From: Rubripirellula sp.
GTDB lineage: Bacteria; Planctomycetota; Planctomycetia; Pirellulales; Pirellulaceae
Assembly: GCA_965216875.1 (NCBI GenBank)
Contig: OZ244207.1
Span: forward strand, 2,240,001-2,304,000
Reading direction: 5' to 3'
Length of the DNA: 64,000 bases
The notes under the pieces were generated by a model. The model was not told the origin of the DNA. It searched no databases and saw only the letters and a list, made by a program, of their open reading frames with translations. Of the stretch, positions 2,989 through 23,013 are shown piece by piece (position 1 is the first letter of the stretch; each line of letters opens with the position of its first letter). The position numbers and the translations under genes were made by a program.

Positions 2989-3663
2989 ATGACTGAGGCG
3001 GAATACGAACCAGTCGATCGGCGTCCCATTCAAAGCCGCGACACTCGTTGGGCCAATCGTATTGCCCAGCTCCTTGTGCGGTTGGGGCTGTCGCCCAATT
3101 CGATTTCTCTCATTGGTATGTTCGCAGCGATTGCCGGCGGAGTTCTGTTCGGACTGACAAGCCAAACGGAAGCAGCGACTCAGCGAATCCTTTGGCTTTG
3201 CGCTGGATTGCTATGCCAGGTGCGTTTGCTGTGCAATCTATTCGACGGGATGGTTGCCGTCGCGCAAGGAATCGCATCCCCGAAGGGTGAACTCTATAAC
3301 GAAGTCCCTGATCGCATCTCCGACGCCGCTATTTTCATCGGGATCGGGTATGCCGCAGGTGGCAGCCCTGAAATTGGATTCACCGCAGCGTTGCTTGCCG
3401 TCTTTGTTGCGTATGTCCGAGCAATGGCAAAGTCGATTGGCGCACCCAATGATTTTTGCGGTCCAATGGCAAAGCCGCAGCGGATGGCGTTGGCGACATC
3501 ACTTTCCGCCTACATGGCGTTTTCGCCTCAGGGATGGCGACTCGAATTTGGCGAAGCGACCTTGATTCTCGGTCTTGTCGCGATCGGTTGCATGGTCACG
3601 GCCATCCGTCGGCTAAGCCGCGCATCGAAGCATCTCTCGGCCGCGGAGTCCTCGCAGCCTTAA
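2989..3663 (+). CDS. CDP-alcohol phosphatidyltransferase family membrane protein (YnjF-like)
   Basis: LSPNSIS; NLFDGMVA...KGELYNEVPDRISD; GPMAKPQRM; several hydrophobic helices. Confidence 0.85.
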   Translation: MTEAEYEPVDRRPIQSRDTRWANRIAQLLVRLGLSPNSISLIGMFAAIAGGVLFGLTSQTEAATQRILWLCAGLLCQVRLLCNLFDGMVAVAQGIASPKGELYNEVPDRISDAAIFIGIGYAAGGSPEIGFTAALLAVFVAYVRAMAKSIGAPNDFCGPMAKPQRMALATSLSAYMAFSPQGWRLEFGEATLILGLVAIGCMVTAIRRLSRASKHLSAAESSQP

Positions 3664-7598: not shown

Positions 7599-7625
7599 TG
7601 GAACTGCTTGGGGCCATTTTTGACC

Positions 7626-8501
7626 ATGCTGAACACCGCAGACTTTTTGAAGCAGATCAAAACGTCTGATGACCACATCGGTGCACGTTTGATTTACGCC
7701 GATTGGCTCGAAGAGCAGGGGGATCCGCAAGGCGAGTTCATCCGAATTCAGTGCGAGCTGTACACCCGCCGCAACGAGGTGGTTTCGCCTGAAATTCGTT
7801 CGCTGCGGCTTCGCGAACGCGAGTTACTCGATGCCAACTTTCGCTACTGGGCCCACGGCCTACTCGAGGAAGGTATTGAGCACGCAGACATCCATTTTCG
7901 ATTTGGCACCGTCGACAGTGTCACCTTGGGCGAAAACGACTTTCATCGCTTTCGAGATCGCCTGAGTGAACTCGCTCCGATGCTAAGGGGTTTGCGTTTG
8001 GACGGCGCCCACAACTACCTTCCCCGTCTCGAAAGCTGGCCATTGCTTTCATCCATGAAGCAGTTGACCTTCACTCACCTCGGATCGGATGAGGCTGACA
8101 TACGCTATCTCTTCCGCTTTCTGCGGCGGTTGCCGGGGCTTGAATCGCTTTGCCTCTACTACACCGACCAGGGTGACCCTGTCGCCCGAATGCTCGCTGT
8201 CCCCGACGGCTTTCCCCGACTCATCGCCCTCGACCTATCAAGCATTGGAATCACCGAAGTCGGGGTCGAACAGCTCACACTGAACCAGGCGCTGATGAAA
8301 CGCTTGCGTTGGCTCAACCTTTCGCACAATCGTCTGGACGACACGGCGATCGGTCACTTGGTCAACGTAGGAATGGACAGCCTCGAAAACCTCAGGCTGC
8401 TTGGCTCAAGCGTTTCGTACGATATGCACGAAAAGCTCGAGCAGCAATTTGGCGCCCGGTGCGACATTTCTCGGATCCGCAATCGATGGCACGCTCAATG
8501 A
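7626..8501 (+). CDS. TIGR02996 (repeat-companion) domain protein with leucine-rich repeats
   Basis: RLIYADWLEEQGDPQGEFIRIQCEL followed by LxxLxLxxN repeats (LIALDLSSIGI, LRWLNLSHNRL). Confidence 0.88.
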   Translation: MLNTADFLKQIKTSDDHIGARLIYADWLEEQGDPQGEFIRIQCELYTRRNEVVSPEIRSLRLRERELLDANFRYWAHGLLEEGIEHADIHFRFGTVDSVTLGENDFHRFRDRLSELAPMLRGLRLDGAHNYLPRLESWPLLSSMKQLTFTHLGSDEADIRYLFRFLRRLPGLESLCLYYTDQGDPVARMLAVPDGFPRLIALDLSSIGITEVGVEQLTLNQALMKRLRWLNLSHNRLDDTAIGHLVNVGMDSLENLRLLGSSVSYDMHEKLEQQFGARCDISRIRNRWHAQ

Positions 8502-11500
8502 CGCAGAGTTGGTTTTTCAACCACGTGTTTGATCACCTTTGCGTCCGGATGGCGGAAGACACGCGGATCGAAAATGTCATCACTAACGTACCAGGGTGTG
8601 CCGTCCTTGCGCCGATACATTCGATCAGCCTCCGCACGACTCAACGGCCGCGCACCAACTCGACCAAACACCGCGATCTGATTGCCGCTTTCGTCAACAG
8701 CGCGGTCGCGGTCCATCCCGCGACTGATCGCAAGGGCGTGCCCCTCTTTCGGTAGCTTGTAGCTAGCAACCAAGTAAGGCATCGGACGTGGGCTGAACCC
8801 ATCGTTGCCGGGAACTTCGGGGCTCGTGAGTTGAATCACTCGCAGCCCATTCTTTCCATCGGCGACATACGCAAACTGACTCACGTTCGTGATCCCGAGT
8901 TTGACGTCGTGGGCGTCATTGATGCATCCGTTCGCATCATAGATCTGATCGACGTAGGCAGCTTGCGGGTTCTCAATATCAAGAATCGCCAAGCCGTGCT
9001 TGCCGGCCGCAACGTAGGCATACGTTCGTGCAAGGTAAATTCCGTGGGCATCATGCAGCGGAACATGATGAACCACACGCGGGTGAGCCAAATCGGTTGT
9101 ATCGAGTACCGTCACGCCTTCCTCGTCGGTCACAAATCCGTATCGGAATTGAACCGCCACTTTGTGCGGATGGTGCAGCTCGTCTTGCCCGATCACTTCG
9201 GTGACGTGGGGGCAAGTCGGATCGCTGATGTCGACGACCACGAGCCCCGCTTTTGCGCAGATATAGGCGTAGGTCCCAACAATCGTGATCGATTCAGCAC
9301 CACACAAAATCCCGTCAGGATTGAAAGTGAGGGCGCGTTCGAGATAGTTGTTCAGCGGGTTGCCGTCGAGAAGCGTTCCGGCGCCGACCAAGATCAGCCC
9401 TTCCTCGCGGTCAGTGACATAGATGTAGGCATACATCGAGTGAACCGCTGGCTCCTCGTTCCGAGGGTCCTGAACGCGCGTTGGATCGGGAGCAATCGTT
9501 GTGGGTGCGGCAACTCCCGTCGCATACTTCGATCGAACGTAGAAACGTTGACCAACAGGCGATACCGGCGCCGTCGTGATTCGCTCACTAAACGCTTTGT
9601 GATCGATAAACGCGATGTCAAAGACTCGCAAACCGCCCTTGCCACAAGCCGCATAGAGGTATTCGCCACGATGTTGAAGATCGAGCACCTCGGGCTTGCG
9701 GAATCGCAACGAGAGTGCTTCGATAATGTCGCGCCCCGGATGCTCGTGGCTATGCTCGAGCTTTCGGCCGTGCTTGACGTGTTCTTTGTAGTTGTCAGGG
9801 TAAGCAATCTTGTGCAATGAACTTCCGATCACAGCCTGCGGCTCGGTGTTTTCGGTGACCACCACAGCTTCAAAGCCATGCTCACCCGCCGCCACGTAGC
9901 AATACTTCCCAATGAAGTTTGTGAATCCGGTACCTTGCATCAAAAGCTGCGCCATCAGAGCGTTGTTGTCTTCGTTGATCGAGAGGTGACAATCGCTGCA
10001 GCTCTTCGTTTCGTAGACGCCGGGCATTCCGTGCGCAGATTCATTGCTCCAGCCGGCACCACCGCGAACGGTATGCGGGACGTTGGTGCTGAAGGCAATC
10101 CCGCTCATCCCATCCCCAGAGATCGTCTGCTGTTGGGTATAGATGGATTGCCGCTTGGCATCGAGACTGCTGACGTGAATCGCACAGCTACTGCGAGCTG
10201 GGCCGATTCGATTTCCTGTCACATTTCCATCGCGAGCTAACATAAAGACGTCGTCGCGAAGCGTCTGGAAGTTGTAGCTGGTCCGGTTTCGCGTCACGTC
10301 ACCGTTGTTGTGCAACTCGGGTGACTTGATGTTCGCTTTTTGCGTCAGGTGACAACCAAAGCAACTCGGATTCCACGAACTATGGCATGAGATGCATGAC
10401 ATGTTCTCGTTACGGTGTGCACATGCGAGAACGGCGTCTTTGTCGGATCCGCCCCAAGTGAGTTTGCCGTCGTCGGCCATGCGAACCGTTTTGGCTGCAT
10501 GCGAACGCGGGTTGTATTCCGAGCTTCCTGGACGAATAGTGTTGGCCGTTTGGCTGACGACCCAATACTTATCCGGTTCGACCGTACTGCGTTGAATCAG
10601 CTGCGGCTCCTTGCCTGGCTCGCGAAGAATCTCGAAGCGAGGCGTGTCGAAGGTTGTGCGCAGTGCGAGCAGGTTCGTCCCATTCGTTGGCGCGGCGGGA
10701 CCAGTCGTCGGTAGCCTTGGTGCTTGGCCATTGGCAATTTGACGTTCCACTTTCTCGACAAGCGTTTCGTCAGCCGTACCATGGCAGTCGATGCACTGAA
10801 TTTCAATCGCCGCACGCACTTCGGCATACAGGTTCGTGTTGCCGTGACTGTCTTGATAGAAGTGACAATCGGTGCAATGCATCCCCTTTTCCATGTGGAT
10901 GTCCATCAGATGGACGGGCGCATCAGGACGACATTTCCCAGCGTCCGTCTGCTCTTTCTCTGTTGGCGGTGCCACAGCAGCTTGAAGCTGTTCGTTGCTC
11001 GCTTCGCCAATCTTGTCATTCTTCCAATCGAGTAGGTTCCCTTTGCGGTCCTTCTTGAACACCGCTCGGAACACCCAGCCGTGCCCGTGGAAATCAGCAA
11101 ACTGAGTGTGGCGCAAATGTGGATTCAGGTCGCTCACGTTGGCCAGGAACTCGGGATCGCTCCAGTGTCCGCGTGCCGCCGCTTCGTTCGGGTTCGATTC
11201 GGTTGCACGAATGTAGTCTTCGGCGGTGAGGTGCTTTTGCTTGGTCGGGTACATCAACTCGCCGTCGGTTTCGTTGTCCCACCACATGTAACCGAGGTAG
11301 CTATTGATCACGTTCGTGCCTGGGTGCACATGGCAAACCATGCACTGGCTCGTCGGCATCCGAAGTTCGAACTTGTGCTGGATTGGATGGCCCGGTTGAT
11401 CCTTCCGGATCATTGGGTCAATGAACTGCACCCATTCATCGCGTTCCGCCGCCGCTGTACCCCGGTTGCCGTATTTGGCAAGGAAGCCACTTGCAACAGG

Positions 11501-12829
11501 ACTACGATCATTGGCGTAAAGCACGTGACAGGCACTACAGCCGCTGCTTCGGTAGTCACCCGGGTGATCGTTCGTCCCCAAGAAGTTGAGCGTGGGGTCG
11601 AGCAATCTTGTTTTGGCAAGGCCGACGTAGACGGGGTCGGTTCGGTTCTCGGTCCCGAGGCCACGGTTGCTGAGCCGTTCACGTGGTCGCCCGGGTTCTT
11701 CAAGGATTTCAGGAATGCCGACTTCAGCGCGAAAACGGCCACCGCGTTCAAAGATTCTTAGCACGTTGCCCGGCTGGCTGACCTGGTAGGGCAACAAGGG
11801 CTGCAGATAGGGAACGATGCCTTTATTGCGCGTCTCTTCGGGCGTCGGCAAGGGTACGTTCTGCAGGATCTGAGGCGCTCCGTGCATGCTGTACGATTCG
11901 CCGTATTGGGCGTACTTTTTGTCGGTCGATCCGTTGTTGTAAAGAGCCGCGCCCCAAAGCATGCAACCGTGCGTCATCATGCTTTTGCGAAGCTGCAAAA
12001 CTTCGTTGGGGTGACACTGTCCACAGGCAATGTGCGCAACACGCAGGTCACCCGGATTCATGAACCGAATGAACTCAGGATCCTCATGATTGAGGATGGT
12101 GTAACTGCGAACCGGATTGGCGCTGTCCTTCCAGGCTGGCGCGAAACGAGGCCAGACGTGTGCGCCTTTGATATTGAAGCAAGTCGCATCGCCACCGTGA
12201 CAATCGGTGCATCCGATTTGGACGGAGTTGATCGGGTGCATGTGCCCGACGTCGGTATGACAGTGAATGCAACTTTCACTCTTCAAGTAGGCATCGCCCG
12301 ACGTTTGCCGCGCCAGGTCGTCGTGACGCAGATTCTCTGGAATCGGATAGGACGGGTTGTCGGCAATGCCCAAGCGACGCGCGACGTCCCAAGGGTCATC
12401 ACTGCGGCGGCCAATCCCTGACTCGGTGGCTCCCAATGAATCGGAGGCAGCGCGTCCGTGATAAGTACGTGGCAAAGGAATCTTCTGCTCAGGCACAACA
12501 ACGCCCTCGGGCAGATCAGGGCGTGACGCCACGCGAATTTTTGGTTGAGCCGAGGCTCTTGGCAATGGCTTGGGCGCGGTGTCAAGTTGGTCCGAAAGAC
12601 GCATCGTAAACGGCTCGGGCGCATGGTCGGCCGGGTTACCCGATTCACGTTGCTCGTTCGAATCGTTGCTACCTGCGGGTTCCACGTGCGACACCGGTTT
12701 GACTTGCGCCTGTGAACGCAACAAGTCTTTCAGCTTTGCCGTTCGCTGACTCGGTGTTTGCGCCTGCGCATCGGAAACGCAGACGGCAACGACGACCAAC
12801 GCTAGTAGTTGTTTGATGAATCCGTTCAT
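8495..12829 (-). CDS. Exported multiheme c-type cytochrome (10 CxxCH) fused to a C-terminal LVIVD-repeat beta-propeller
   Basis: Sec signal MNGFIKQLLALVVVAVCVSDAQA (ATG 12829; ORF open to 12877). Motifs CIHCH, CTDCH, CGQCH, CSACH, CMVCH, CTDCH, CIDCH, CISCH, CFGCH, CSDCH. About 7 repeats such as YAYVAAGKHGLAILDIENP, YAYICAKAGLVVVDISDP, FAYVADGKNGLRVIQL. Confidence 0.88.
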   Translation of the reverse strand: MNGFIKQLLALVVVAVCVSDAQAQTPSQRTAKLKDLLRSQAQVKPVSHVEPAGSNDSNEQRESGNPADHAPEPFTMRLSDQLDTAPKPLPRASAQPKIRVASRPDLPEGVVVPEQKIPLPRTYHGRAASDSLGATESGIGRRSDDPWDVARRLGIADNPSYPIPENLRHDDLARQTSGDAYLKSESCIHCHTDVGHMHPINSVQIGCTDCHGGDATCFNIKGAHVWPRFAPAWKDSANPVRSYTILNHEDPEFIRFMNPGDLRVAHIACGQCHPNEVLQLRKSMMTHGCMLWGAALYNNGSTDKKYAQYGESYSMHGAPQILQNVPLPTPEETRNKGIVPYLQPLLPYQVSQPGNVLRIFERGGRFRAEVGIPEILEEPGRPRERLSNRGLGTENRTDPVYVGLAKTRLLDPTLNFLGTNDHPGDYRSSGCSACHVLYANDRSPVASGFLAKYGNRGTAAAERDEWVQFIDPMIRKDQPGHPIQHKFELRMPTSQCMVCHVHPGTNVINSYLGYMWWDNETDGELMYPTKQKHLTAEDYIRATESNPNEAAARGHWSDPEFLANVSDLNPHLRHTQFADFHGHGWVFRAVFKKDRKGNLLDWKNDKIGEASNEQLQAAVAPPTEKEQTDAGKCRPDAPVHLMDIHMEKGMHCTDCHFYQDSHGNTNLYAEVRAAIEIQCIDCHGTADETLVEKVERQIANGQAPRLPTTGPAAPTNGTNLLALRTTFDTPRFEILREPGKEPQLIQRSTVEPDKYWVVSQTANTIRPGSSEYNPRSHAAKTVRMADDGKLTWGGSDKDAVLACAHRNENMSCISCHSSWNPSCFGCHLTQKANIKSPELHNNGDVTRNRTSYNFQTLRDDVFMLARDGNVTGNRIGPARSSCAIHVSSLDAKRQSIYTQQQTISGDGMSGIAFSTNVPHTVRGGAGWSNESAHGMPGVYETKSCSDCHLSINEDNNALMAQLLMQGTGFTNFIGKYCYVAAGEHGFEAVVVTENTEPQAVIGSSLHKIAYPDNYKEHVKHGRKLEHSHEHPGRDIIEALSLRFRKPEVLDLQHRGEYLYAACGKGGLRVFDIAFIDHKAFSERITTAPVSPVGQRFYVRSKYATGVAAPTTIAPDPTRVQDPRNEEPAVHSMYAYIYVTDREEGLILVGAGTLLDGNPLNNYLERALTFNPDGILCGAESITIVGTYAYICAKAGLVVVDISDPTCPHVTEVIGQDELHHPHKVAVQFRYGFVTDEEGVTVLDTTDLAHPRVVHHVPLHDAHGIYLARTYAYVAAGKHGLAILDIENPQAAYVDQIYDANGCINDAHDVKLGITNVSQFAYVADGKNGLRVIQLTSPEVPGNDGFSPRPMPYLVASYKLPKEGHALAISRGMDRDRAVDESGNQIAVFGRVGARPLSRAEADRMYRRKDGTPWYVSDDIFDPRVFRHPDAKVIKHVVEKPTLRH

Positions 12830-12900
12830 ATCATTTAGCCAACGGGGGCAGACGATTGAGGGGCATCGCTTTGACATCCCTCATGTGGCGTCTGCTTTCG

Positions 12901-14934
12901 CTAGTACTCGAGGATGAGCTCCATGAATCCCGCGACGTGATTTCGGGTGTCGCCGTTTAGGTTTTGAAACAGGTCTTTGAATCCGCCACCTGGGATCAGC
13001 GTTGCGATCCCCCCTTCGATCAGCACGTTGTTGTTATGCAGCGGGCGGTATTCGATGCCTGAACTGAGGTCGACGCCGATGAACTCGCGCACGTCGCCAA
13101 CAAACAGGTAAGTTTCCAGCACTTCCGTTTTGTCAAACCAAAGGAAGTTACAGTTATTGATGGTCTTCAGCCGGGGCGTGATGTCGGCATCGATCCCAAG
13201 GTTGAACAGGTGCAGGCCAGGATTGACGAAATTGGTTTGCCCCTGAAACTTCGTGTTTCGAAGGCTAGGTGTGAGTGCTTCGCGATTGACCAACTCAACG
13301 CCGAATAGCCGAATTCCCTGGCGTCCCCAATAGCTGAATTCCTGGCCTGCAAAGTTCGGTTCGGCAAAGATCGCATCGAAACCGGTCGCCCGGCTGTCGT
13401 TCGGATCACTGTCACCGGAACTATAGAAGTAAGACGTTCGGAAACGCACCCAGTCACGGTCGTAGGAAAGCTCGAGTGCCGCCATGTAGGCACTGATATC
13501 GACCTCACGCCCCGCGATGGGGTTCAAGTCGTCGCGTCCGAGCACGTAGTAAAACGCACTGCTCACGTTGATCCGTTCAATGTGCCCATTGCTCGCCGTT
13601 CCGAAGTAGTACGACTTGACGTCATGTGGAACAGCAACCCCAACGGGGTCGGGCCGAACGAGGAAGTTGTTTTTATCAAACTCCATCGACGGCTTGTCGT
13701 GGTTGTAGTGGAACGAGAAGGTGACGTCGTATCCGGGATAGAGAAAATCCTGGCGATAGTAGTTGGCAATCCAAGTGTTCTGATGGCGGTCTTCATTCAG
13801 ACGGTTCAACAGACTGTTGGTGTCCTTTTCCGTTTGATCAAACCAGATCACGTTGAATTCATCGCGGTTGCTGTTCCGCGTACCGAACAAGCGAACGGCG
13901 CGGTTGATGTCGTTGAAAATGAACCCGCGGAAATCACTAACGAAGATTTGGCTGCCCGCTCGAACGGACGCGAAGTCGTAGTAGGGACTGGTGTCAGCAA
14001 GCTTGGCTTCGAAAAACCATTCTTCCAAGGCAAAGTCTTTGCGAAACCGTTGCGTTCCAGCGCGAACGTCTGGATTCACAACCGCAAGCTCATCAGCCAC
14101 GAAGTTGTTGATGTTGAAAATCATGTCGACTTTCACACGCCAGTCGACCGGCTTGAAGAACGTGTTGCCGTGGAACAGATCAAACGCGAGTTGCATTTGA
14201 TTCACGACCGTGAACGAATCGGGATCGCCAAAGAAGGCAGCAGCGCCCGGATTTCGTGTTGCTTCGAAGGGAGTCGTCGGCGTCGGAAGCTGGCGTCCCT
14301 CAAGAAGCGTCAGGTTGATTCCGGTGATATTCAGGAAGGTGTGTTGCCCGATGATCGGGTAGTCACCTTTGAGAACGTTTTGGTTGTAGGGGTCCCACCA
14401 GGCACCTTTGACACCTGGATAGTCATCCATGATCGGGTGCCCTTTGCCATAACGGTCTGAGTCAGGCAGCCCCAACCGCCAACGATCTTCGAGCGGAATG
14501 AAGTGGCTGCTTGTTTGCGATTCCGTTGGTAGAACACCGCTCGGGCCGGTGAAGCCGTATGGATGGCCCTTGCCGCCCGCGACAACCAGGGGATTGGTGT
14601 GGTCTTCGAGCGGACCGATTGCAGGGAGTCGCTGCTGCGGTTCGTCGGCTGGCCTCAAAACCTTCGGGCGAATCTCGGATTCCGCTTGGACCAACTGGAT
14701 CGCCGACAGTTGCTCTGCAATCGTCGAACCGTTTTTGATGGGCGTGCTTGGATCACCGGACCTTAGATCGAACAGCGCTTCGTCCACCGGAGTGCTTAGC
14801 AGATCGGCTTGAAGCTCGATGCCTGGACCGAGCTGAAGCAGATCACCCAGGGCGCGGGTCTGAGCGCGCACCGTCGACGTGCTGCACATTGCAGTCAGCG
14901 TCAAAACGATGATCGCGATCCGAACCATACGCAT
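12901..14934 (-). CDS. Predicted outer-membrane beta-barrel protein (alginate-export/porin-like)
   Basis: Signal peptide; many amphipathic aromatic-rich strands (YMAALELSYDRDWVRFRTSYFYSSGD, IGVDLSSGIEYRP); YSSGDSDPND loop reminiscent of AlgE-type barrels; ends in FMELILEY with a terminal aromatic residue. Confidence 0.72.
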   Translation of the reverse strand: MRMVRIAIIVLTLTAMCSTSTVRAQTRALGDLLQLGPGIELQADLLSTPVDEALFDLRSGDPSTPIKNGSTIAEQLSAIQLVQAESEIRPKVLRPADEPQQRLPAIGPLEDHTNPLVVAGGKGHPYGFTGPSGVLPTESQTSSHFIPLEDRWRLGLPDSDRYGKGHPIMDDYPGVKGAWWDPYNQNVLKGDYPIIGQHTFLNITGINLTLLEGRQLPTPTTPFEATRNPGAAAFFGDPDSFTVVNQMQLAFDLFHGNTFFKPVDWRVKVDMIFNINNFVADELAVVNPDVRAGTQRFRKDFALEEWFFEAKLADTSPYYDFASVRAGSQIFVSDFRGFIFNDINRAVRLFGTRNSNRDEFNVIWFDQTEKDTNSLLNRLNEDRHQNTWIANYYRQDFLYPGYDVTFSFHYNHDKPSMEFDKNNFLVRPDPVGVAVPHDVKSYYFGTASNGHIERINVSSAFYYVLGRDDLNPIAGREVDISAYMAALELSYDRDWVRFRTSYFYSSGDSDPNDSRATGFDAIFAEPNFAGQEFSYWGRQGIRLFGVELVNREALTPSLRNTKFQGQTNFVNPGLHLFNLGIDADITPRLKTINNCNFLWFDKTEVLETYLFVGDVREFIGVDLSSGIEYRPLHNNNVLIEGGIATLIPGGGFKDLFQNLNGDTRNHVAGFMELILEY

Positions 14935-15336
14935 GGGGTGGTGGTCTCTTGTCGCTGTTTTGCCCGTCTTGCCTTAATGGGCCTTTGAATCAAAGCGTTT
15001 CTCGAGCAGCTTCACTGTCCGAGAGTCACAGAACCGCTGCATCCGCCCGGGGCTTTTGGAAGCCCCTCGCCGGGAGCACAAAGAGCATCTTTGTGGCCTA
15101 CCTTTGTCCCGGTTGGGGTTTGATGGCCCCAAACTGCGGTTTCAGGTTGTATCGGTTGGGGGACAACTGACACTGATAACGAAGAATCCAATAAATCCAA
15201 TTTTTCAGTCTCCTCTGCCACTTTCCCGGGTTTAGCTCGTCAAACCTGGCAATTGAAGTAGCATGGGGAGACCCCCGAGTTCGGTGGCCCTCCGGTTGAA
15301 AGGTGGAGGGTGCCAAAACGCGTACCGGAATCCTCG

Positions 15337-18054
15337 ATGAGCAAACGTTCACGACGCCCCCGCTCCAGAAGGTTGGCCGCAGAATCGCTTGAACGCAGGC
15401 AAATGCTTGCGGGCGATGTCTGCATGCACAACCTCGATATGCCGACCGACGTCAACGGGGACGGTCACGTGACATCCAGCGACGCGTTAGCAGTCGTTAA
15501 CCACATGACCCGGCTGCGCAGCGCCGAGGGCGATTCGCCAGCGGTTCCCACGGTAACGCCAAAGATGGTCGACGTTGACAACAACGGCGACGTTACCGCG
15601 CGCGACGCATTGATGGTGATCAACGACCTTCGCATCGAAGCGGAGATCATTCCTGCTGACACCCCTCGACCACCCGAACTTGATTACGACCTCATCGCTC
15701 GCCCAGCAGATGTCGATGACGATGGGATCGTTGAAGGCGACGACATCAACGCCAAAGATTCGACCTTCAAAGTCCTCAAGAACTTCAAGTCACTCGACCC
15801 TGGCAATCCAGACTTTGAGTACGCATCACAGTTCAACAAAGCGTTTCGTCGCGATGGCGCGTTGAACTTGTTGACCACTGACGACGTCGAAACGCTGCTC
15901 GACCGCGCCTCGGCGGCAACCAAGAGCGATGATGCAATCATTGTTGTTGTGGATCGCAACGGAACGATGCTCGGAGTGCGCGTTGAAGAGGGTGTGAGCC
16001 TAAGTCCGACGGGCGATGCCGACCTGGACGCCAAGAAGCTTGCCTACGCCATTGATGGTGCTGCCGCGAAAGCGCGAACGGCTGCTTTCTTCAGCAACAA
16101 CGCAGCCCCCATCACTAGCCGAACGATTCGATCACTGAGTCAGTCGACGATGGTGCAACGTGTCGTCGAAGCATCACCAGTTGACCTACGTGGACAAGAG
16201 TATGTCGGCCCCGGTTTTGTGGCGCCGATTGGCGTCGGCGGCAAGTTTCCACCCGAAGTTGATTTCACTCCTCAGGTAGACCTGTTCGCGATCGAGCACC
16301 AAAGTCGTGACAGCCAACGTCATCCGGGTGCTGACCAGATCAAAGGAAATGAGGACGATTTCTACCTGCGGACGCGATTCAACAGCGATCCAACTTTCGT
16401 TCCGGACAACACCGAATCGTTCTCACAGAGCTGGCCTGAAGCGTATGGGATTCAGGTCGATCGCTTCTTTGACTCGCAATCGCGTGGGATCGCGACACTT
16501 CCCGGCGGCGTTCCTCTTTACAAACTAGTAACTGAAGATGGCGGAGGCCCCGTTTCGGCTGGCACACCGCTGAGCGAACGGATCAACCTTGTCGGAGGCA
16601 TTGGCGTCTTTTTCCCTGGTGAAGAGGGCGATGCAACGTTTGAGCAGGGTTTCGTGCACGGCGTTGGCCAATCCGAAAAGTCGCGCACGAACGCACCGAA
16701 AGTGCTCGAGGCCGAATTCGCAGCCGTGATCGCCTCGGCTGGCGGTGGCTTGTTCAATCCGTTCCAATCGGCCTTCGTTCGCAATCTGTCCGCCTTCAAC
16801 TCCGAGCTGCCTCCGCTTCCCAATTTCATTCTGCCAACAGGCCGAATTGATTTGGTTGGCATCACGCTTGAGATCTTCGGCCCCAATCCAGATCGTTCGT
16901 TCCGAAAGCCCGGTATCGATCGATTGATCGCGGTCGGTTCCGCGACATTCGGTGGTGCTGGATTCATTTCCGGCGACTTGGTTCCAATCAACAAAGATGG
17001 CGACCTGCTGCAACCTGGTAAGCCAGTCCCCGAGGGCTGGTTGGTCGCGCCACACGATTCCGCCTTGCCCGGCGGATTGTCGGCCGAAGACGTTGACAAA
17101 ATCATCGCCGAAGGTGTCGACGAGGCGCTAAAGACGCGGGCTGCCATTCGCTTGGACATCGACGGTGGATTCAAAGCGGGTGTTCCAACCGGAATGGTAT
17201 TGTCGGTTGCCGACACCAACGGTGAGCTACTTGGCGTCTACAGAATGCCCGACGCGACCGTCTTTTCGATTGACGTGTCGATCGCCAAATCTCGAAACAC
17301 GAGTTACTACGCCGACCCAACACCTGGCGTCCTGCAAGACGAAGACCGGATCGATTTTAACAACGACGGCATCTTTGGCGGCGTATCGACATCACTTAGC
17401 GACTTTGGCGGTGATACCGTCCCAGTGGGAACGGCTCTGACAAATCGCTCCTTCCGTTTTGTCGTCGAACCGCGGTATCCGACGGGAATTGAGTTACCCA
17501 ATTCTGCTGGCGATGGCTTGGTCAACGACCCCAATCTGAACCTCTGCGACCAAAAGCTCGCTGTGTGCAAGTTGACTGGGCCGCAAAGCATCGTCCGCAT
17601 GCCAGGAATCAACCCGATCACCGGCGAGAACTTGGTCAACGACGCACCGCTCGACGCGGCGGTCTATCAATTCAGTCCTGATGATCACGTCGACGGACGC
17701 AACACGTTTAGCGTTCTCGCCTTCGACGCGTTCAATCCAAGCCGTAACTTCCGAGACCCGGGTGATGGATCGGTCGTGATTCATGGTGACGGATCACCCG
17801 AACCGCTTGCCAACCAAAATGGGATCGTCTTCTTCCCAGGTAGCACAGCGCTTTACAAGGGTGCGGGCAACGAAACTCTCGTGGGTGGTTTCGGGGTCAG
17901 TGGCGATGGCGTCGACCAAGATGATGTTGTCACCGTCGCCGGCCAAGATGGATTCGCGCCACCTCAATCGCTTCGCGTCGACACCTTCGTCCTCGCAGGC
18001 GTTCGGCTGCCCTTCCAAAAGTTCAACCGCGTCCCGCAGCTGAACACCCGGTAA
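15337..18054 (+). CDS. Exported protein: planctomycete extracellular motif + dockerin type I-like pair + two GlcG/HbpS (haem-degrading family)-like domains
   Basis: RRLAAESLERRQMLAGD; DVNGDGHVTSSDALAVVN and DVDNNGDVTARDALMVIN. Domain 1: LTTDDVETLLDRA..IVVVDRNG..AKARTAAFF..LPGGVPLYK..LVGGIGV. Domain 2: LSAEDVDKII..SVADTNG..RMPDATVFSIDVSIAKSRNT..FPGSTALYK..LVGGFGVSGDGVDQDD. Confidence 0.82.
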   Translation: MSKRSRRPRSRRLAAESLERRQMLAGDVCMHNLDMPTDVNGDGHVTSSDALAVVNHMTRLRSAEGDSPAVPTVTPKMVDVDNNGDVTARDALMVINDLRIEAEIIPADTPRPPELDYDLIARPADVDDDGIVEGDDINAKDSTFKVLKNFKSLDPGNPDFEYASQFNKAFRRDGALNLLTTDDVETLLDRASAATKSDDAIIVVVDRNGTMLGVRVEEGVSLSPTGDADLDAKKLAYAIDGAAAKARTAAFFSNNAAPITSRTIRSLSQSTMVQRVVEASPVDLRGQEYVGPGFVAPIGVGGKFPPEVDFTPQVDLFAIEHQSRDSQRHPGADQIKGNEDDFYLRTRFNSDPTFVPDNTESFSQSWPEAYGIQVDRFFDSQSRGIATLPGGVPLYKLVTEDGGGPVSAGTPLSERINLVGGIGVFFPGEEGDATFEQGFVHGVGQSEKSRTNAPKVLEAEFAAVIASAGGGLFNPFQSAFVRNLSAFNSELPPLPNFILPTGRIDLVGITLEIFGPNPDRSFRKPGIDRLIAVGSATFGGAGFISGDLVPINKDGDLLQPGKPVPEGWLVAPHDSALPGGLSAEDVDKIIAEGVDEALKTRAAIRLDIDGGFKAGVPTGMVLSVADTNGELLGVYRMPDATVFSIDVSIAKSRNTSYYADPTPGVLQDEDRIDFNNDGIFGGVSTSLSDFGGDTVPVGTALTNRSFRFVVEPRYPTGIELPNSAGDGLVNDPNLNLCDQKLAVCKLTGPQSIVRMPGINPITGENLVNDAPLDAAVYQFSPDDHVDGRNTFSVLAFDAFNPSRNFRDPGDGSVVIHGDGSPEPLANQNGIVFFPGSTALYKGAGNETLVGGFGVSGDGVDQDDVVTVAGQDGFAPPQSLRVDTFVLAGVRLPFQKFNRVPQLNTR

Positions 18055-18187: not shown

Positions 18188-18856
18188 CTAACCCGAGATC
18201 CATTCGCTCGTGTCGGGCTCGTTTCCCTTTTCGTTGACCTCTCTTACGCTGCGAAACAGTTGGATGGGCAGTTGCACGAGTCCAACCAATATCAGTGTTC
18301 CAAAGAACCACGTGGCAACGGCAATGGTTGAAAGCGAGGTCCACAGCGTCAATGCGGAAAGGGTGATCCCAAACACGGCGAGCAACGATTTGAACTCTGT
18401 TGGGCCAAACTTCGACAGTGTGAACTCGCCAATGAGTTTCGCCTTGATGTTCGTCAGAACAGCGGTCGCAAAAAGACAGATGACCGCGACCAATGCGAAG
18501 TCGAGACGACCGCATGCAAACCCGATGCCGACCAACCAGTAGGCAAAAGAAAGCGGGTCGGTGAAGTGGTCGAGCAGTTCGCCGCCATTTCGACATTGAT
18601 TGGTCGTGCGAGCGTGCGTGCCGTCGACGCAGTCAGCGGTGTGATTGGCGATGACGCCAAAGGCTGCCAACAACCCGCCCCACCAGTGAGTTGTCGACAG
18701 AGCAAAACCGACTGCGCCAACGGCCGCACAAAGATGCCCTGCCAAAACGATCCCCTCGGGCGGAAACGTTTTGGGGATACGCAAATGCGGGTAAAGCGAT
18801 TTGAGTCGTGGCCCAATGACCGGGTCCAATACGCTATGAGAGATTCGTTGTGACAT
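18188..18856 (-). CDS. CDP-alcohol phosphotransferase family protein
   Basis: ADCVDGTHARTTNQCRNGGELLDHFTD matches DxxDGxxAR...GxxxDxxxD; multiple transmembrane helices. Start probably ATG 18856. Confidence 0.88.
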   Translation of the reverse strand: MSQRISHSVLDPVIGPRLKSLYPHLRIPKTFPPEGIVLAGHLCAAVGAVGFALSTTHWWGGLLAAFGVIANHTADCVDGTHARTTNQCRNGGELLDHFTDPLSFAYWLVGIGFACGRLDFALVAVICLFATAVLTNIKAKLIGEFTLSKFGPTEFKSLLAVFGITLSALTLWTSLSTIAVATWFFGTLILVGLVQLPIQLFRSVREVNEKGNEPDTSEWISG

Positions 18857-18981
18857 CGATGCTGGTTCGATCTGAGTTTCGAGTTGGGCTCTAAAATACA
18901 GAGAGACCAACGAGCCGAGGGCGCTGCGCCATTTGTCGCCGATCTCCCGTTTGTGACGGAATCACGCCTATAATTGCAGGC

Positions 18982-20028
18982 ATGTCGCCAGAAAAACCGC
19001 TCCCTCGCTACGACCATCGCCAAACCTATCGTTGGAATTACGATCATTCACCTGATCCTGCACAACTTGCTGTTCCCGCGATTTCCGGCGACTGGACCTT
19101 TGCTGGAATACCCGCCGCGTCACCAATTGGCGTTGCCGCAGGACCGCTTCTGAATGGCCGCTGGGTGCTCTACTACGCGTCGCTCGGTTTCGACGTTTTG
19201 ACTTACAAGACCGTGCGGAGCCGCGTTCGCGATTGCTACCCCTTGCCGAATCTGGTGTTCGTTCCCGATACCGACGGATTGGACGAACGTTGTGATGAGA
19301 TGCGTGCAATGGACAGCGGGACGGAGAGTTGGGCGGTCAGCTTTGGGATGCCTTCGAGCTCGCCCGAGATTTGGCGAGCGGACATCGAAAAAACTCGCGA
19401 CGCGCTCCCCGCCTCAAAACGACTGAACGTCTCCGTCGTCGGTTCGACCGAACCTGGATGGTCGCTGCAAGACTTGGCTGACGACTATGCACGCTGCGCT
19501 CGCTGGGCAGTCGAAGCGGGAGCCGACACCGTTGAAGCCAACTTGTCTTGTCCGAACGTCGACACCTGTGACGGGCATCTTTATCAACAGCCGACCGAGG
19601 CCGCGCTGGTAGCCCAAACAATTCGCGACCAAATCGGCGACACGCCTCTTGTGCTGAAAATCGGTCACGTCACAACCGATGATCTCGCTCGAGAACTCTT
19701 AAAGGACGTCTCGCCGTTCGCCAATGCGCTCGCAATGACAAACAGCATTGCTTGCACAGTACGTGATCGCAACGGAGCGTGGTTGTTTGATGGCCAAAAG
19801 CGTGGCATCTGCGGCAAGTCAACCTTGAACGCTTCTCTTGAGCAGGTCCAACGGTTTGCCAAGTTGAAGAGTGTGCTTGCTGTGGACGTGAAACTGATCG
19901 GTGTAGGTGGCGCGTCCAGCGGGACGGACGTGCAAGCGTATCTCGATTGCGGTGCTGAGTCAGTCCAGCTAGCCACCGCCGCAATGCTCGATCCGAAGGT
20001 GGCGATCAAAATCAAACAGGCGTTCTAA
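18982..20028 (+). CDS. Dihydroorotate/dihydropyrimidine dehydrogenase-like FMN TIM-barrel oxidoreductase
   Basis: SPIGVAAGP, LTYKT, EANLSCPN, LVLKIG, MTNS, LIGVGG, GAESVQLATA. Confidence 0.78.
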   Translation: MSPEKPLPRYDHRQTYRWNYDHSPDPAQLAVPAISGDWTFAGIPAASPIGVAAGPLLNGRWVLYYASLGFDVLTYKTVRSRVRDCYPLPNLVFVPDTDGLDERCDEMRAMDSGTESWAVSFGMPSSSPEIWRADIEKTRDALPASKRLNVSVVGSTEPGWSLQDLADDYARCARWAVEAGADTVEANLSCPNVDTCDGHLYQQPTEAALVAQTIRDQIGDTPLVLKIGHVTTDDLARELLKDVSPFANALAMTNSIACTVRDRNGAWLFDGQKRGICGKSTLNASLEQVQRFAKLKSVLAVDVKLIGVGGASSGTDVQAYLDCGAESVQLATAAMLDPKVAIKIKQAF

Positions 20029-20145: not shown

Positions 20146-20300
20146 CTCCCTTTTTCTGACTTTTTTTCGGCGTCGATGTAAGAAGGCCTGCTGACTCGGG
20201 TACTAACCGGGCAAACAGGACTATTCCCGTCGCAGCATTGACAAGCTTTGTCGATTCCTGCTGCCACGTCTTCTCGTCTTCAAGTCAAAGGGCTCTCGGT

Positions 20301-22142
20301 ATGTCACGACGCAGAACACCTCTTCGCAAACAATCGCGGAAACGCAACACCGCGCAACGCCGATCATCACGACGATCGCTCAGTTTCCAGGGACTTGAAG
20401 ATCGGCGAGTACTCGCGGCGGCTCTGACCGCAGGCGGTGTGTTGGTGGTCGAAGCAAACGATGAGCCGAACGAGATCGTGGTCTGGGCAAACAAAGAAAC
20501 CAACACACTGGTCGTTAGTCTTGATGGCAACGAATTCGAATTCCAAGACGATGCCGTACGCAGGATCGACGTCTCAGGCAACGGCGGCAACGACGTGATC
20601 GGAATCCGCGATAGCGTCACTCAACGAACCGTCCTCGATGGCGGCGATGGCAACGACACAATCGTTGGTAGCCAGCAGGCCGACCAAATCTCCGGCGGAC
20701 GCGGTAACGACCGCCTCGGTGGACGTGGCGGCAGTGACCGAATCGACGGCGGCGCGGGCAACGACGCCATTTCCGGTGGCGATGGGTCCGACAGCATCCA
20801 GGGAGGCGTCGGTAGCGACAACATTCGTGGTGGCGCCGGAAACGATCGGATCTTGGGCGATCCTCTTGAGAATGATCGCGCCGACGATTCGGACGCCGAT
20901 GCCGAACGCAGCCTCGAAGATGCTGTCGAGCGCAGCGTCGATGCTGGTGGCGGGGCAACGCACGAAGGCGACTTGGTTTCCGCAGAACCAGTCGACGATC
21001 GGCCTGATGTTGAACCGCCAGCTCCTACTTTCAATGACTTGATCTTTGGTGGCGAAGGCAACGATTCGATTCGCGCCGGCGTTGGCCACGATCGCGTTTT
21101 CGCCGGACCAGGACGAGACTCAGTCTCAGGGGGCGCCGGATCCGACTGGATCGAAGGCGGCGAAGGAAACGATCGCCTTTCAGGTGACACAGGCGCTGAC
21201 GTCATCTTCGGTGGCGCGGGCAACGATCGAATCCAAGGTGGGCGCGGTGGTGACTACCTAATTGGTGGCGCAGGAGGAGATGCCATTCGTGGTGGGGCCG
21301 GCAACGATTGGGTCTGGGGCGACGCCACAAACGAGTACCCCGAGGGCTACACCGATCCTGTCGCCTACACCATCGACTTCGTGAATCGCAATCGCGGACG
21401 CGACCGCATCTCTGGCGATGCAGGCAACGACATTTTGCTTGGCGGCAATTCGGCCGATGCCATTCGTGGTGGAGCGGGCAATGACATTGCCGTCGGCGGC
21501 GAAGGAAACGACCGCATCTCGGGCGGTGCAGGAAACGATGTGATCCTTGGCGATTGGCGTTTCGAACCATCCAACGACGATCCTGATCAAACCGAAGCAT
21601 TCGAAGCCGCCGATCAACTGGTCCGAGATGTCGCGGCGGCACGCGAAGCCGATGTCAACGACGAAGCATCTGAGATCCGTCGCTCCTTTAACGACCGAAT
21701 CTCAGGCGGCCAAGGGAACGACTTGATCTTTGGCATGCACGGTCGCGACCGCATTGCCGGCGGCAGTGGCAACGACATGCTCTATGGTGGACGTGATCAT
21801 GACGTGATTCGTGGCGGCCGGGGCGACGACACCCTTTCCGGCGGACTCGGCAACGATCGACTCGCCGGCGGCGTTGGCAACGACCGAATGGGCGGCGGTG
21901 CAGGGAATGATCGAATGGACGGAGGACGCGGCAATGACATCATGCTCGGCGGCTTGGGCAACGACCTGATGTATGGCCGAGACGGCGATGACTTGTTGGT
22001 CGGTGGTGCCGGCAACGACTCGCTCATCGGCGGTCGCGGTGCTGATGAAATCAAGGCGCGCGACGGTGAGGTCGACCGAATTCTGGCCGATGAATTCGAC
22101 GACATCGAAGCAGACGACGAAGACATCATCGTGCTCCGCTAA
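20301..22142 (+). CDS. RTX/hemolysin-type calcium-binding repeat protein with planctomycete extracellular motif
   Basis: RSLSFQGLEDRRVLAA followed by dozens of GGxGNDxIx nonapeptides in blocks separated by acidic linkers. Confidence 0.9.
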   Translation: MSRRRTPLRKQSRKRNTAQRRSSRRSLSFQGLEDRRVLAAALTAGGVLVVEANDEPNEIVVWANKETNTLVVSLDGNEFEFQDDAVRRIDVSGNGGNDVIGIRDSVTQRTVLDGGDGNDTIVGSQQADQISGGRGNDRLGGRGGSDRIDGGAGNDAISGGDGSDSIQGGVGSDNIRGGAGNDRILGDPLENDRADDSDADAERSLEDAVERSVDAGGGATHEGDLVSAEPVDDRPDVEPPAPTFNDLIFGGEGNDSIRAGVGHDRVFAGPGRDSVSGGAGSDWIEGGEGNDRLSGDTGADVIFGGAGNDRIQGGRGGDYLIGGAGGDAIRGGAGNDWVWGDATNEYPEGYTDPVAYTIDFVNRNRGRDRISGDAGNDILLGGNSADAIRGGAGNDIAVGGEGNDRISGGAGNDVILGDWRFEPSNDDPDQTEAFEAADQLVRDVAAAREADVNDEASEIRRSFNDRISGGQGNDLIFGMHGRDRIAGGSGNDMLYGGRDHDVIRGGRGDDTLSGGLGNDRLAGGVGNDRMGGGAGNDRMDGGRGNDIMLGGLGNDLMYGRDGDDLLVGGAGNDSLIGGRGADEIKARDGEVDRILADEFDDIEADDEDIIVLR

Positions 22143-22398: not shown

Positions 22399-23013
22399 AT
22401 GATCCGCCTGCTTGTACTCTCGACTGCGATCTCGGCTCTGGCACTTTCACCCGTGCTGGCGGGCGAGAATATTTCGACCCATTCGTTCCATTTCAGCGAT
22501 GCACCGGGCGCGGAACAGGAAGTGGAACTCGAGGCAGTTCCGGTCGAATTGCTGCAAAGTCCTTCCGAAATGGTGGAAGTGATCGAAGAACCTTCTCATT
22601 GCCGTCCAAAAATCTGCCGCGGCGTGTGCAAAGACCCGGGCCACCCCAAAAAGCCACTGATCGACAAACCGGGCGATCGCAACCGAGGTGACTGCCCACC
22701 GCTCCGTTATCGAATGCCCGATTGCAAGCGAGCCGGTAATCCACACTGCGTCGCGTGGTGGGCCAAATGTGGTGTTGACGGAAAATATGGAGCCTGGTTC
22801 GTCGGTGGTGGCTCACCCTTCCCTCGTGGTCGCTGTCGCAAACTAAGCGAAGGAACTTGGGGACTCGACTACAAGGGACTCTTTGGCCACAGCCGCGTGT
22901 GGTTGAACTACACACGCCACGATCGCAAACAGGGTGGCGAAGGCGCCTACGAAACCGACGGCGAACCGGAATTCGTGAAAAAGGCACACAGCTTCCTCGG
23001 GCTAGGTCACTAA
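22399..23013 (+). CDS. Secreted Cys/Trp/Gly-rich hypothetical protein
   Basis: Signal peptide MIRLLVLSTAISALALSPVLA; 8 Cys; WFVGGG, GTWGLDY, QGGEGAYETDG. Confidence 0.75.
   Translation: MIRLLVLSTAISALALSPVLAGENISTHSFHFSDAPGAEQEVELEAVPVELLQSPSEMVEVIEEPSHCRPKICRGVCKDPGHPKKPLIDKPGDRNRGDCPPLRYRMPDCKRAGNPHCVAWWAKCGVDGKYGAWFVGGGSPFPRGRCRKLSEGTWGLDYKGLFGHSRVWLNYTRHDRKQGGEGAYETDGEPEFVKKAHSFLGLGH

Follow-up and report, generated by a model that had tools for sequence, protein, structure and literature searches.

The described gene clusters closest to the locus treated here are PCC4 (He 2017, PMC5566968) and PtdABCDEFG (Elbon, bioRxiv 10.1101/2023.11.21.568154), both of them genomic predictions whose function is described as unknown in the accessible portions of these two reports. 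The accessible part of the former also gives WX3HX13H/SGXXG as the signature of a membrane protein (IMP) of PCC3 and PCC4, and likens it to ferric-reductase (FRE)/NADPH oxidase (NOX) domains. Here, we analyzed a 64,000-nucleotide stretch of a Rubripirellula sp. genome (contig OZ244207.1, positions 2,240,001 to 2,304,000; hereafter, the window), in which three adjacent genes code for a predicted outer-membrane beta-barrel, an exported decaheme c-type cytochrome with a C-terminal LVIVD-repeat domain (predicted beta-propeller), and an exported tandem GlcG/DUF336 protein. Co-inheritance of these three genes (the trio) is seen in many planctomycetes and in some alphaproteobacteria, and they likely represent an outer-module variant of a PCC4/Ptd-type chain. 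The original prediction, made from the window alone, took them for one joint outer-membrane redox or heme-handling machine; the clustered and co-inherited trio holds, an MtrAB-like conduit and heme handling are not supported, and it overlooked a larger chain of which the trio likely makes up no more than the outer end, the inner genes lying elsewhere in the genome.

A co-inherited trio of genes

The three large open reading frames (ORFs) were found where they had been predicted (8495-12877 and 12901-14934 on the minus strand, 15310-18054 on the plus strand). The cytochrome ORF (8495..12877, minus) comprises 1460 aa, and the stop codon of the co-oriented barrel gene (12901..14934, minus; 677 aa) lies 23 bp from its first ATG (12877) and 71 bp from its second (12829), which matches the predicted spacing; the start at 12829 is favored, since many homologue matches begin near residue 17. 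The divergent GlcG ORF opens at GTG 15310 (914 aa), and ATG 15337 yields the 905-aa protein on record (15337..18054, plus); with this start, the intergenic region between the barrel and GlcG genes (14935..15336, assigned to neither strand) measures 402 bp, close to the ~400 bp predicted. No sigma-70 promoter consensus was found within this region. Each gene of the trio is single-copy in the genome, the 19 further genomic matches to the GlcG protein being confined to its N-terminal export-motif/dockerin-like region.

The original prediction had set co-occurrence and clustering of the three genes in other genomes as its test, and both were found, in planctomycetes as well as in Sphingobium/Sphingopyxis. 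We confirmed a cytochrome relative in 460 GTDB contig stretches, of which the best 79 were retained (planctomycetes wherever a lineage is given, two being titled "bacterium" only), while 80 metagenome loci with a cytochrome relative formed a separate set, and presence was counted in an even sample of 201 Planctomycetota genomes that includes the own genome; kin among the compared genomes are not independent, and counts are given without a statistic. Among the best 79 loci, the barrel gene lies directly upstream of the cytochrome gene on the same strand in 66 of the 68 with at least 1 kb upstream, and a GlcG gene is present in 45 of the 51 with at least 6 kb upstream, 40 of these being divergent as in the window. 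The metagenome loci have the barrel gene directly upstream in 52 of 64 cases and, given at least 6 kb upstream, a GlcG gene in 18 of 28 (11 divergent, 3 co-oriented). The cytochrome and the barrel match an identical set of 32 of the 201 genomes. A tandem-GlcG profile gives long matches (best E 9e-51 or lower) in 28 of these 32, and outside them reaches 2 of 169 genomes with ~70-aa single-domain matches only; 23 of the 28 genomes supplied rows to this profile, and the 22 distant ones were first found by a profile built from close loci only. As a single query at 1e-20, the window GlcG sequence matches 5 of 201 genomes, a low count that we attribute to divergence, since the profile recovers matches in 28 of 32. 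Moreover, the GlcG gene is located within the neighborhood of the cytochrome gene in 25 of the 31 other genomes, one of these 25 being cut by a contig end.

Outside Planctomycetota, 13 Sphingobium/Sphingopyxis replicons carry both a full-length cytochrome and a barrel. In both of the replicons inspected, genes for a tetraheme, GlcG, barrel and decaheme protein form one co-oriented run, and in Sphingobium a cNMP (cyclic nucleotide)/FAD/Fe-S protein, an IMP and a second decaheme are encoded 2 kb from it. The trio thus constitutes a conserved family (full-length relatives are at least 41% identical) present in 16% of the sampled Planctomycetota genomes and in Sphingomonadales, and we consider it quite probable that its products associate physically. 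As side observations, Crp/Fnr, CHAT, CHASE2, a ShlB-type transporter and a 2092-aa secreted protein precede the Sphingobium operon (L134:1-14581), the second decaheme of which appears, as read by eye, to open with an FHA-like segment, and in five metagenome loci (L206, L208, L212, L227 and L229) the trio is preceded by genes for two 9-heme, one 4-heme and one unknown ~280-aa protein.

A fourth co-inherited gene (22399..23013, plus), overlooked by the original prediction, encodes a small exported protein of unassigned family, which by locus and relative counts accompanies the trio in Planctomycetia. Its family stands beside 33 of the 79 cytochrome loci, and homologues occur in 7 of 41 relatives, each of which is one of the 9 with a strong match to the cytochrome, while the other relatives lack them (a tenth relative gives only weak fragment matches to the cytochrome). 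The protein has a conserved Gly-rich C-terminal half and no Pfam match, and it was not seen in more distant loci.

The inner module and its Ptd-type relatives

The recurrent neighbors in the 79 loci are genes for tetra/pentaheme cytochromes (17 loci), a second decaheme (12), adenylate cyclase (12), IMP (10), a NuoEF-like protein (7) and a cNMP/Fe-S protein (6), and many planctomycete and metagenome loci unite the trio with this inner module. In the own genome, the redox neighbors form one block (3136.5-3148.7 kb) within a porin-less locus (L090:5494-18685, genome 3135.5-3148.7 kb) that encodes, in order, a 2Fe-2S/4Fe-4S/cNMP protein, a NuoEF-like protein, a tetraheme, a decaheme, the IMP, a tetraheme and a pentaheme. 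The IMP (L090:13762-14745, genome 3143.8-3144.7 kb) contains two WX3HX13H motifs and SGXXG; the cytochromes beside it carry 4, 10, 4 and 5 hemes (3140.9-3148.7 kb), and further neighbors contain NuoE/F domains (FMN, 2Fe-2S, 4Fe-4S) and cNMP plus 4Fe-4S domains. The 5-heme protein belongs to a c554-like cluster, and PtdA-type queries match another locus. A cytochrome c'-like gene and a DUF3299 gene adjoin the inner module. A GAF/adenylate cyclase gene (L092:4850-6787, 1319 kb), homologues of which adjoin the trio in 12 of 79 loci, may be a source of cyclic AMP (cAMP) for the cNMP domains.

An IMP profile matched all 32 trio genomes, and the own IMP is present in exactly those 9 of 41 relatives that have a strong cytochrome match. 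The own IMP gave no tblastn match to plasmids, while a hidden Markov model (HMM) does find the Sphingobium IMP. In a quick tree of 64 IMP rows, the 3144-kb IMP falls within a 38-row group (SH-aLRT 95) with 31 trio-linked and 0 PtdB-linked members, and a second own IMP (1741 kb) falls within a group in which 8 of 10 are PtdB-linked; trio-linked IMPs do not form one clade (9 changes). In a sub-lineage (L100, L104, L114, L116, L119, L127, L130 and L143), the IMP is flanked by 15-18-heme cytochromes in place of a decaheme.

Weaker IMP matches lie in Ptd-like loci, which encode a ~640-aa pentaheme, a porin with C-terminal Phe, a FAD/NAD/2Fe-2S protein, a tetraheme, a cNMP/Fe-S protein, the IMP and a decaheme; PtdA and PtdB were assigned here by match to the published description, not to published sequences. 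The PtdB-type porin did not match the window barrel (HMM E 0.34 or higher for the six listed of eight candidates; HHalign probability 1.2%). Of the 201 genomes, 24 carry this porin, and no more than 7 of these 24 belong to the 32 trio genomes; it is present in 0 of 159 cytochrome loci. The own genome carries such a second, classical Ptd-type system split between two sites, with cNMP/Fe-S, IMP and decaheme genes at 1739-1744 kb (L093:3043-8019) and genes for a PtdA-type pentaheme and a PtdB-type porin at 3378-3382 kb. A PCC4/Ptd inner chain could thereby be coupled to two or more outer modules that are unrelated to each other, a reason not to take every cluster of a porin and a multiheme protein for a metal-respiring wire.

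The trio proteins and a candidate terminal reductase

The cytochrome contains exactly ten heme motifs (aa 203-960), as originally read. Its heme-bearing region (aa 203-964; 9986..12271, minus) is followed by the LVIVD-repeat region (aa ~990-1390; 8708..9910, minus), a putative propeller recognized by Pfam PF08309 (E 8.5e-21) and by conservation, in which H1022, H1046, E1072, D1087, K1094, R1134, E1142 and D1156 are conserved. Full-length representatives are 41-56% identical. Nine of the motifs are CxxCH in every alignment row that covers them, whereas 9 of 70 rows have CX4CH as their third motif, and homologues counted as nine-heme are therefore likely ten-heme as well; no CxxCK motif occurs in the cytochrome. 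Heme density is low (one heme per 76 aa in the heme region and per 142 aa overall). Besides the motif residues, 12 His are at least 99% conserved, as are M301, K321, K422 and M666 (M301 and K321 are invariant); judging from the alignment, these surplus His, Met and Lys exceed the ligand needs of ten hemes. PDB sequence searches with the cytochrome gave non-significant matches only (NrfA, E 0.03), an Atlas search with a homologue gave no usable named match, and Foldseek with a model of the heme domain gave no match at E 0.001 or better. In a fold comparison, 2 of 48,161 chains reached Z of at least 2, from which the fold can be called neither new nor known; as regards the octaheme tetrathionate reductase/HAO/NrfA superfamily, the top row, Shewanella octaheme 1SP3 (Z 3.2, rmsd 5.7, 255 aligned residues), is a lead only. 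A local match to NCBIfam ExtM covers aa 658-705. Elsewhere, a 1648-aa homologue (P0139) with 28 CxxCH motifs appears to join the decaheme-propeller to a further multiheme protein, and the own genome holds 24 open frames with at least four CxxCH; among these are 8-heme proteins at 448 kb and 4040 kb and, adjoining a weak IMP match at 6507 kb, one more 10-heme protein.

The 677-aa protein has no Pfam, NCBIfam or PDB sequence match. An AlphaFold2 model (pLDDT 88) has 18 long strands, in agreement with the barrel originally proposed, and the top Foldseek match is the alginate exporter AlgE (3RBH; E 1.1e-16, TM 0.53/0.70, rmsd 6.2, 12% identity), followed by solute porins of 16-18 strands. An Atlas search with the barrel returned unnamed clusters and then an alginate-export cluster at 0.95. 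The MtrB barrel has 26 strands and sheathes a multiheme cytochrome; compared with it, the predicted barrel is likely too narrow to hold the cytochrome. A complex prediction for the barrel with the GlcG core (a shorter homologous pair from G086, no alignments) scored 0.00 and was not used either way.

These features bear on whether the trio could be an extracellular electron outlet to metal oxides, humic quinones or partner cells, in which the decaheme would be located at the outer membrane or on it, with the barrel as its anchor or as a shuttle pore. The porin gene directly upstream of the cytochrome gene (66 of 68 and 52 of 64 loci), the surface-type N-terminal modules of the GlcG protein and the 15-18-heme cytochromes added in some lineages would fit such an outlet. 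However, the 18-strand AlgE-like barrel, the low heme density, an inner end composed of NADH-oxidizing flavoproteins with no quinol oxidase, and hosts that include Sphingobium, which are aerobes, speak against it, and we regard it as unlikely. The narrow AlgE-like barrel and the low heme density likewise disfavor an MtrAB/Pcc-like conduit; an enzyme station is more likely than an MtrAB-type wire. Together with the surplus ligands, these properties lead us to favor, with some reserve, an enzyme role for the decaheme-propeller protein.

The likeness to AlgE also raises the possibility that the decaheme reductively modifies a metabolite or polymer leaving through the barrel. Alginate_exp (PF13372) gives weak matches in 10 of 74 barrel family members (best E 4.8e-5; none for the window barrel itself). 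On the other hand, identity to AlgE is 12-13% only, the conserved charges on the strands are mixed (9 basic, 9 acidic), the annotated neighbor clusters contain no recurring gene for a glycosyltransferase or for biosynthesis, and unannotated metagenome neighbor clusters each occupy at most 6 of 80 loci. Such an export role thus appears highly unlikely.

The GlcG protein begins with a planctomycete export motif and a dockerin-like pair (15361..15630, plus; Planc_extracel aa 18-37 and Dockerin_1 aa 46-107 in Pfam), as first noticed. Read by motif and by eye, this N-terminus is dockerin-like in 38 of 52 close homologues, while elsewhere a lipoprotein-like Cys, a plain signal peptide or RTX-like repeats take its place; judged from these N-termini, the dockerin is a replaceable anchor rather than a defining part. 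Two homologues (L094:3387-6620 and L096:11326-14568) have an HExxH motif in an N-terminal extension. Of the two GlcG/HbpS-like domains predicted, Pfam marks only the second (HbpS-like; PF03928, 33.8 bits vs cut-off 25), and the first is visible in the alignment as a degenerate repeat. The family profile matches EfgA best (E 1.4e-16), and OrfY and PduOC as well. EfgA binds formaldehyde hydrate/formate, and its pocket residues R42/K57/S114/D121 (accessible part of PMC8153426) align to R645, K660, S864 and D871 of the second domain (17077..17949, plus) in the profile alignment; the numbering carries a 20-residue tag offset taken from the alignment and checked against the mutation list in the accessible part of PMC8153426. 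The first three of these residues are invariant and D871 is at least 90% conserved, while domain 1 lacks the set. Ligand identity does not follow from this pocket, its residues being common across DUF336.

That the GlcG protein binds heme like HbpS or PduOC, and that the system thus serves heme or iron acquisition or heme sensing, would be in line with the HbpS-like Pfam match, with the "heme-binding protein" labels that RefSeq gives to homologues, and with an FRE-like IMP, which could serve reductive iron uptake. Nevertheless, 67% is the upper limit of conservation for any His of the GlcG family, with at most 11% in distant rows, and the first helix of either domain has no His in any displayed alignment row, whereas PduOC has its essential His18 in the N-terminal helix (accessible part of PMC4923194). 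Given the retained EfgA pocket and the lack of a conserved His, the label is doubtful; the annotated neighbor clusters show no recurring TonB-dependent receptor or heme ABC transporter, and heme handling, which the original prediction had also considered, seems very improbable. The protein may instead be a substrate binder or sensor.

We tentatively propose, with slightly less than even confidence, that the trio is the outer module of a PCC4/Ptd-type chain in which the decaheme acts as terminal reductase on a soluble substrate. Electrons would start at cytoplasmic NAD(P)H, enter the flavin/Fe-S proteins, pass to the predicted di-heme IMP in the membrane, and then through periplasmic deca- and tetrahemes to the decaheme-propeller protein. 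The substrate would cross the predicted AlgE-like channel and bind in the GlcG pocket, and cNMP domains together with cyclase neighbors suggest that the chain may be under cAMP control. Where di-heme proteins of the FRE/NOX type work with NAD(P)H flavoproteins, electron flow is normally outward, and on this established behavior we consider the outward direction reasonably probable; the chain probably exports electrons to an envelope enzyme.

Conversely, the chain might run inward, the decaheme oxidizing an external or periplasmic donor such as Fe(II), Mn(II), reduced sulfur or nitrogen compounds, or an aldehyde, and electrons passing to quinone or NAD+. Fusions of heme c with a propeller, such as quinohemoprotein dehydrogenases, are oxidases, and in EfgA a pocket of this type binds formaldehyde hydrate/formate; against this stand the normally outward behavior of FRE/NOX-type proteins and a module without energy-transducing subunits for uphill NAD+ reduction. 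We consider inward flow improbable, yet it is how PCC4 was drawn in the accessible part of He 2017 (PMC5566968), and this model also counts against our proposal of a terminal reductase. Other observations weigh against that proposal too: the inner module lies 0.9 Mb from the trio in the own genome, the IMP profile also matches 38 genomes without the trio, and the GlcG match is absent in 4 of the 32 barrel/decaheme genomes, with the GlcG gene in only 18 of 28 metagenome loci. Furthermore, the surplus His could be structural or metal-binding, and the heme-domain model is moderate (pLDDT 71, built without hemes), with no active site visible. More speculatively, and with considerable doubt, the decaheme-propeller protein may be the founder of a new class of multiheme enzymes of unsolved fold, supplied by a cAMP-gated, NADH-driven, NOX-like chain that spans the entire cell envelope and has interchangeable outer modules (trio or PtdAB), and reducing a specific environmental compound at the surface in several lineages.

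Flanking genes and comparison with described systems

A TIGR02996/leucine-rich repeat (LRR) gene (7608-8501), which is not a conserved neighbor, is convergent with the cytochrome gene and overlaps it by 7 bp, and the locus is flanked by ordinary genes, two CDP-alcohol phosphatidyltransferase-like ones (2989-3663 and 18188-18910) and a divergent one for a dihydroorotate dehydrogenase (DHODH)-like flavoprotein (18982-20028). A gene for an RTX-repeat-rich exported planctomycete protein (20238-22142; 12 significant repeats) separates the GlcG gene from the small co-inherited one. The LRR/TIGR02996, DUF1501/PSD1, CDP-alcohol transferase and DHODH-like genes were dropped as parts of the system, since they fall outside the widely recurring neighbor clusters; a DUF1501 gene lies near the cytochrome gene in 7 of 79 loci.

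In the literature searched, mostly open-access, we found no functional study of the cluster, in keeping with the original prediction, and no description of the decaheme-propeller, barrel or tandem GlcG protein (the accessible part of PMC6344600 included). The accessible parts of the PCC4/Ptd descriptions (PMC5566968; bioRxiv 10.1101/2023.11.21.568154) do not mention these three proteins, which their supplements could list. Several candidates were rejected as identities on the accessible parts of their sources: Tenderiales Uet, an undecaheme with separate NHL/LVIVD proteins (bioRxiv 10.1101/2022.05.06.490989), the Verrucomicrobia porin-octaheme PCC (PMC5615132) and PCC3, with 21-34 hemes (PMC5566968). 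Geobacter ExtM was rejected as well (59.5 bits, far under the 800-bit cut-off). The decaheme-propeller protein is a large multiheme protein without a close solved fold, and the role of PCC4/Ptd is directly testable in hosts that are in culture (Sphingobium herbicidovorans and species of Rhodopirellula and Rubripirellula).

The locus resembles MtrCAB/MtoAB/PioAB and Geobacter OmbB-OmaB in that the barrel gene lies directly upstream of a gene for an exported ten-heme cytochrome. It differs from Mtr-type systems in the number of strands (18 vs 26 in MtrB) and in the propeller fusion, and neither a sequence match to MtrA/MtrC (PDB searches) nor a fold match (heme-domain model) was obtained. Heme density differs as well, with 76-142 aa per heme here vs ~33 in MtrA (He 2017, accessible part of PMC5566968). 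Geobacter ExtHIJKLM offers an analogy, with a solute porin (ExtI; accessible part of PMC5877670), a small-ligand lipoprotein (ExtH) and a multiheme enzyme (MccSep, a polysulfide reductase; accessible part of PMC13510729), from which the present locus differs by the lack of a rhodanese and by its inner module. With AlgE (3RBH) the predicted barrel shares the 18-strand fold (TM 0.70 normalized to the target), but identity is 12%, the query stays below the Pfam threshold and there is no alginate operon. The GlcG protein shares the fold of EfgA (6BWS), PduOC (5CX7), OrfY and HbpS by profile and keeps the EfgA pocket in domain 2, but its exported chain unites two such domains and has large insertions, a degenerate pocket in domain 1 and no conserved His.

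PCC4/Ptd is matched in the inner set by a tetraheme, a decaheme, an IMP with two WX3HX13H motifs, a cNMP/4Fe-4S protein and an NAD(P)H flavoprotein, and in the outer set by a porin gene beside the gene for an exported multiheme protein. The flavoprotein is NuoEF-like here, in contrast to the PtdC-type FAD/2Fe-2S protein of Ptd, and where Ptd has a PtdA-type pentaheme and a PtdB-type porin, this locus has an unrelated barrel, a decaheme-propeller protein of ~1,400 aa and the tandem GlcG protein.

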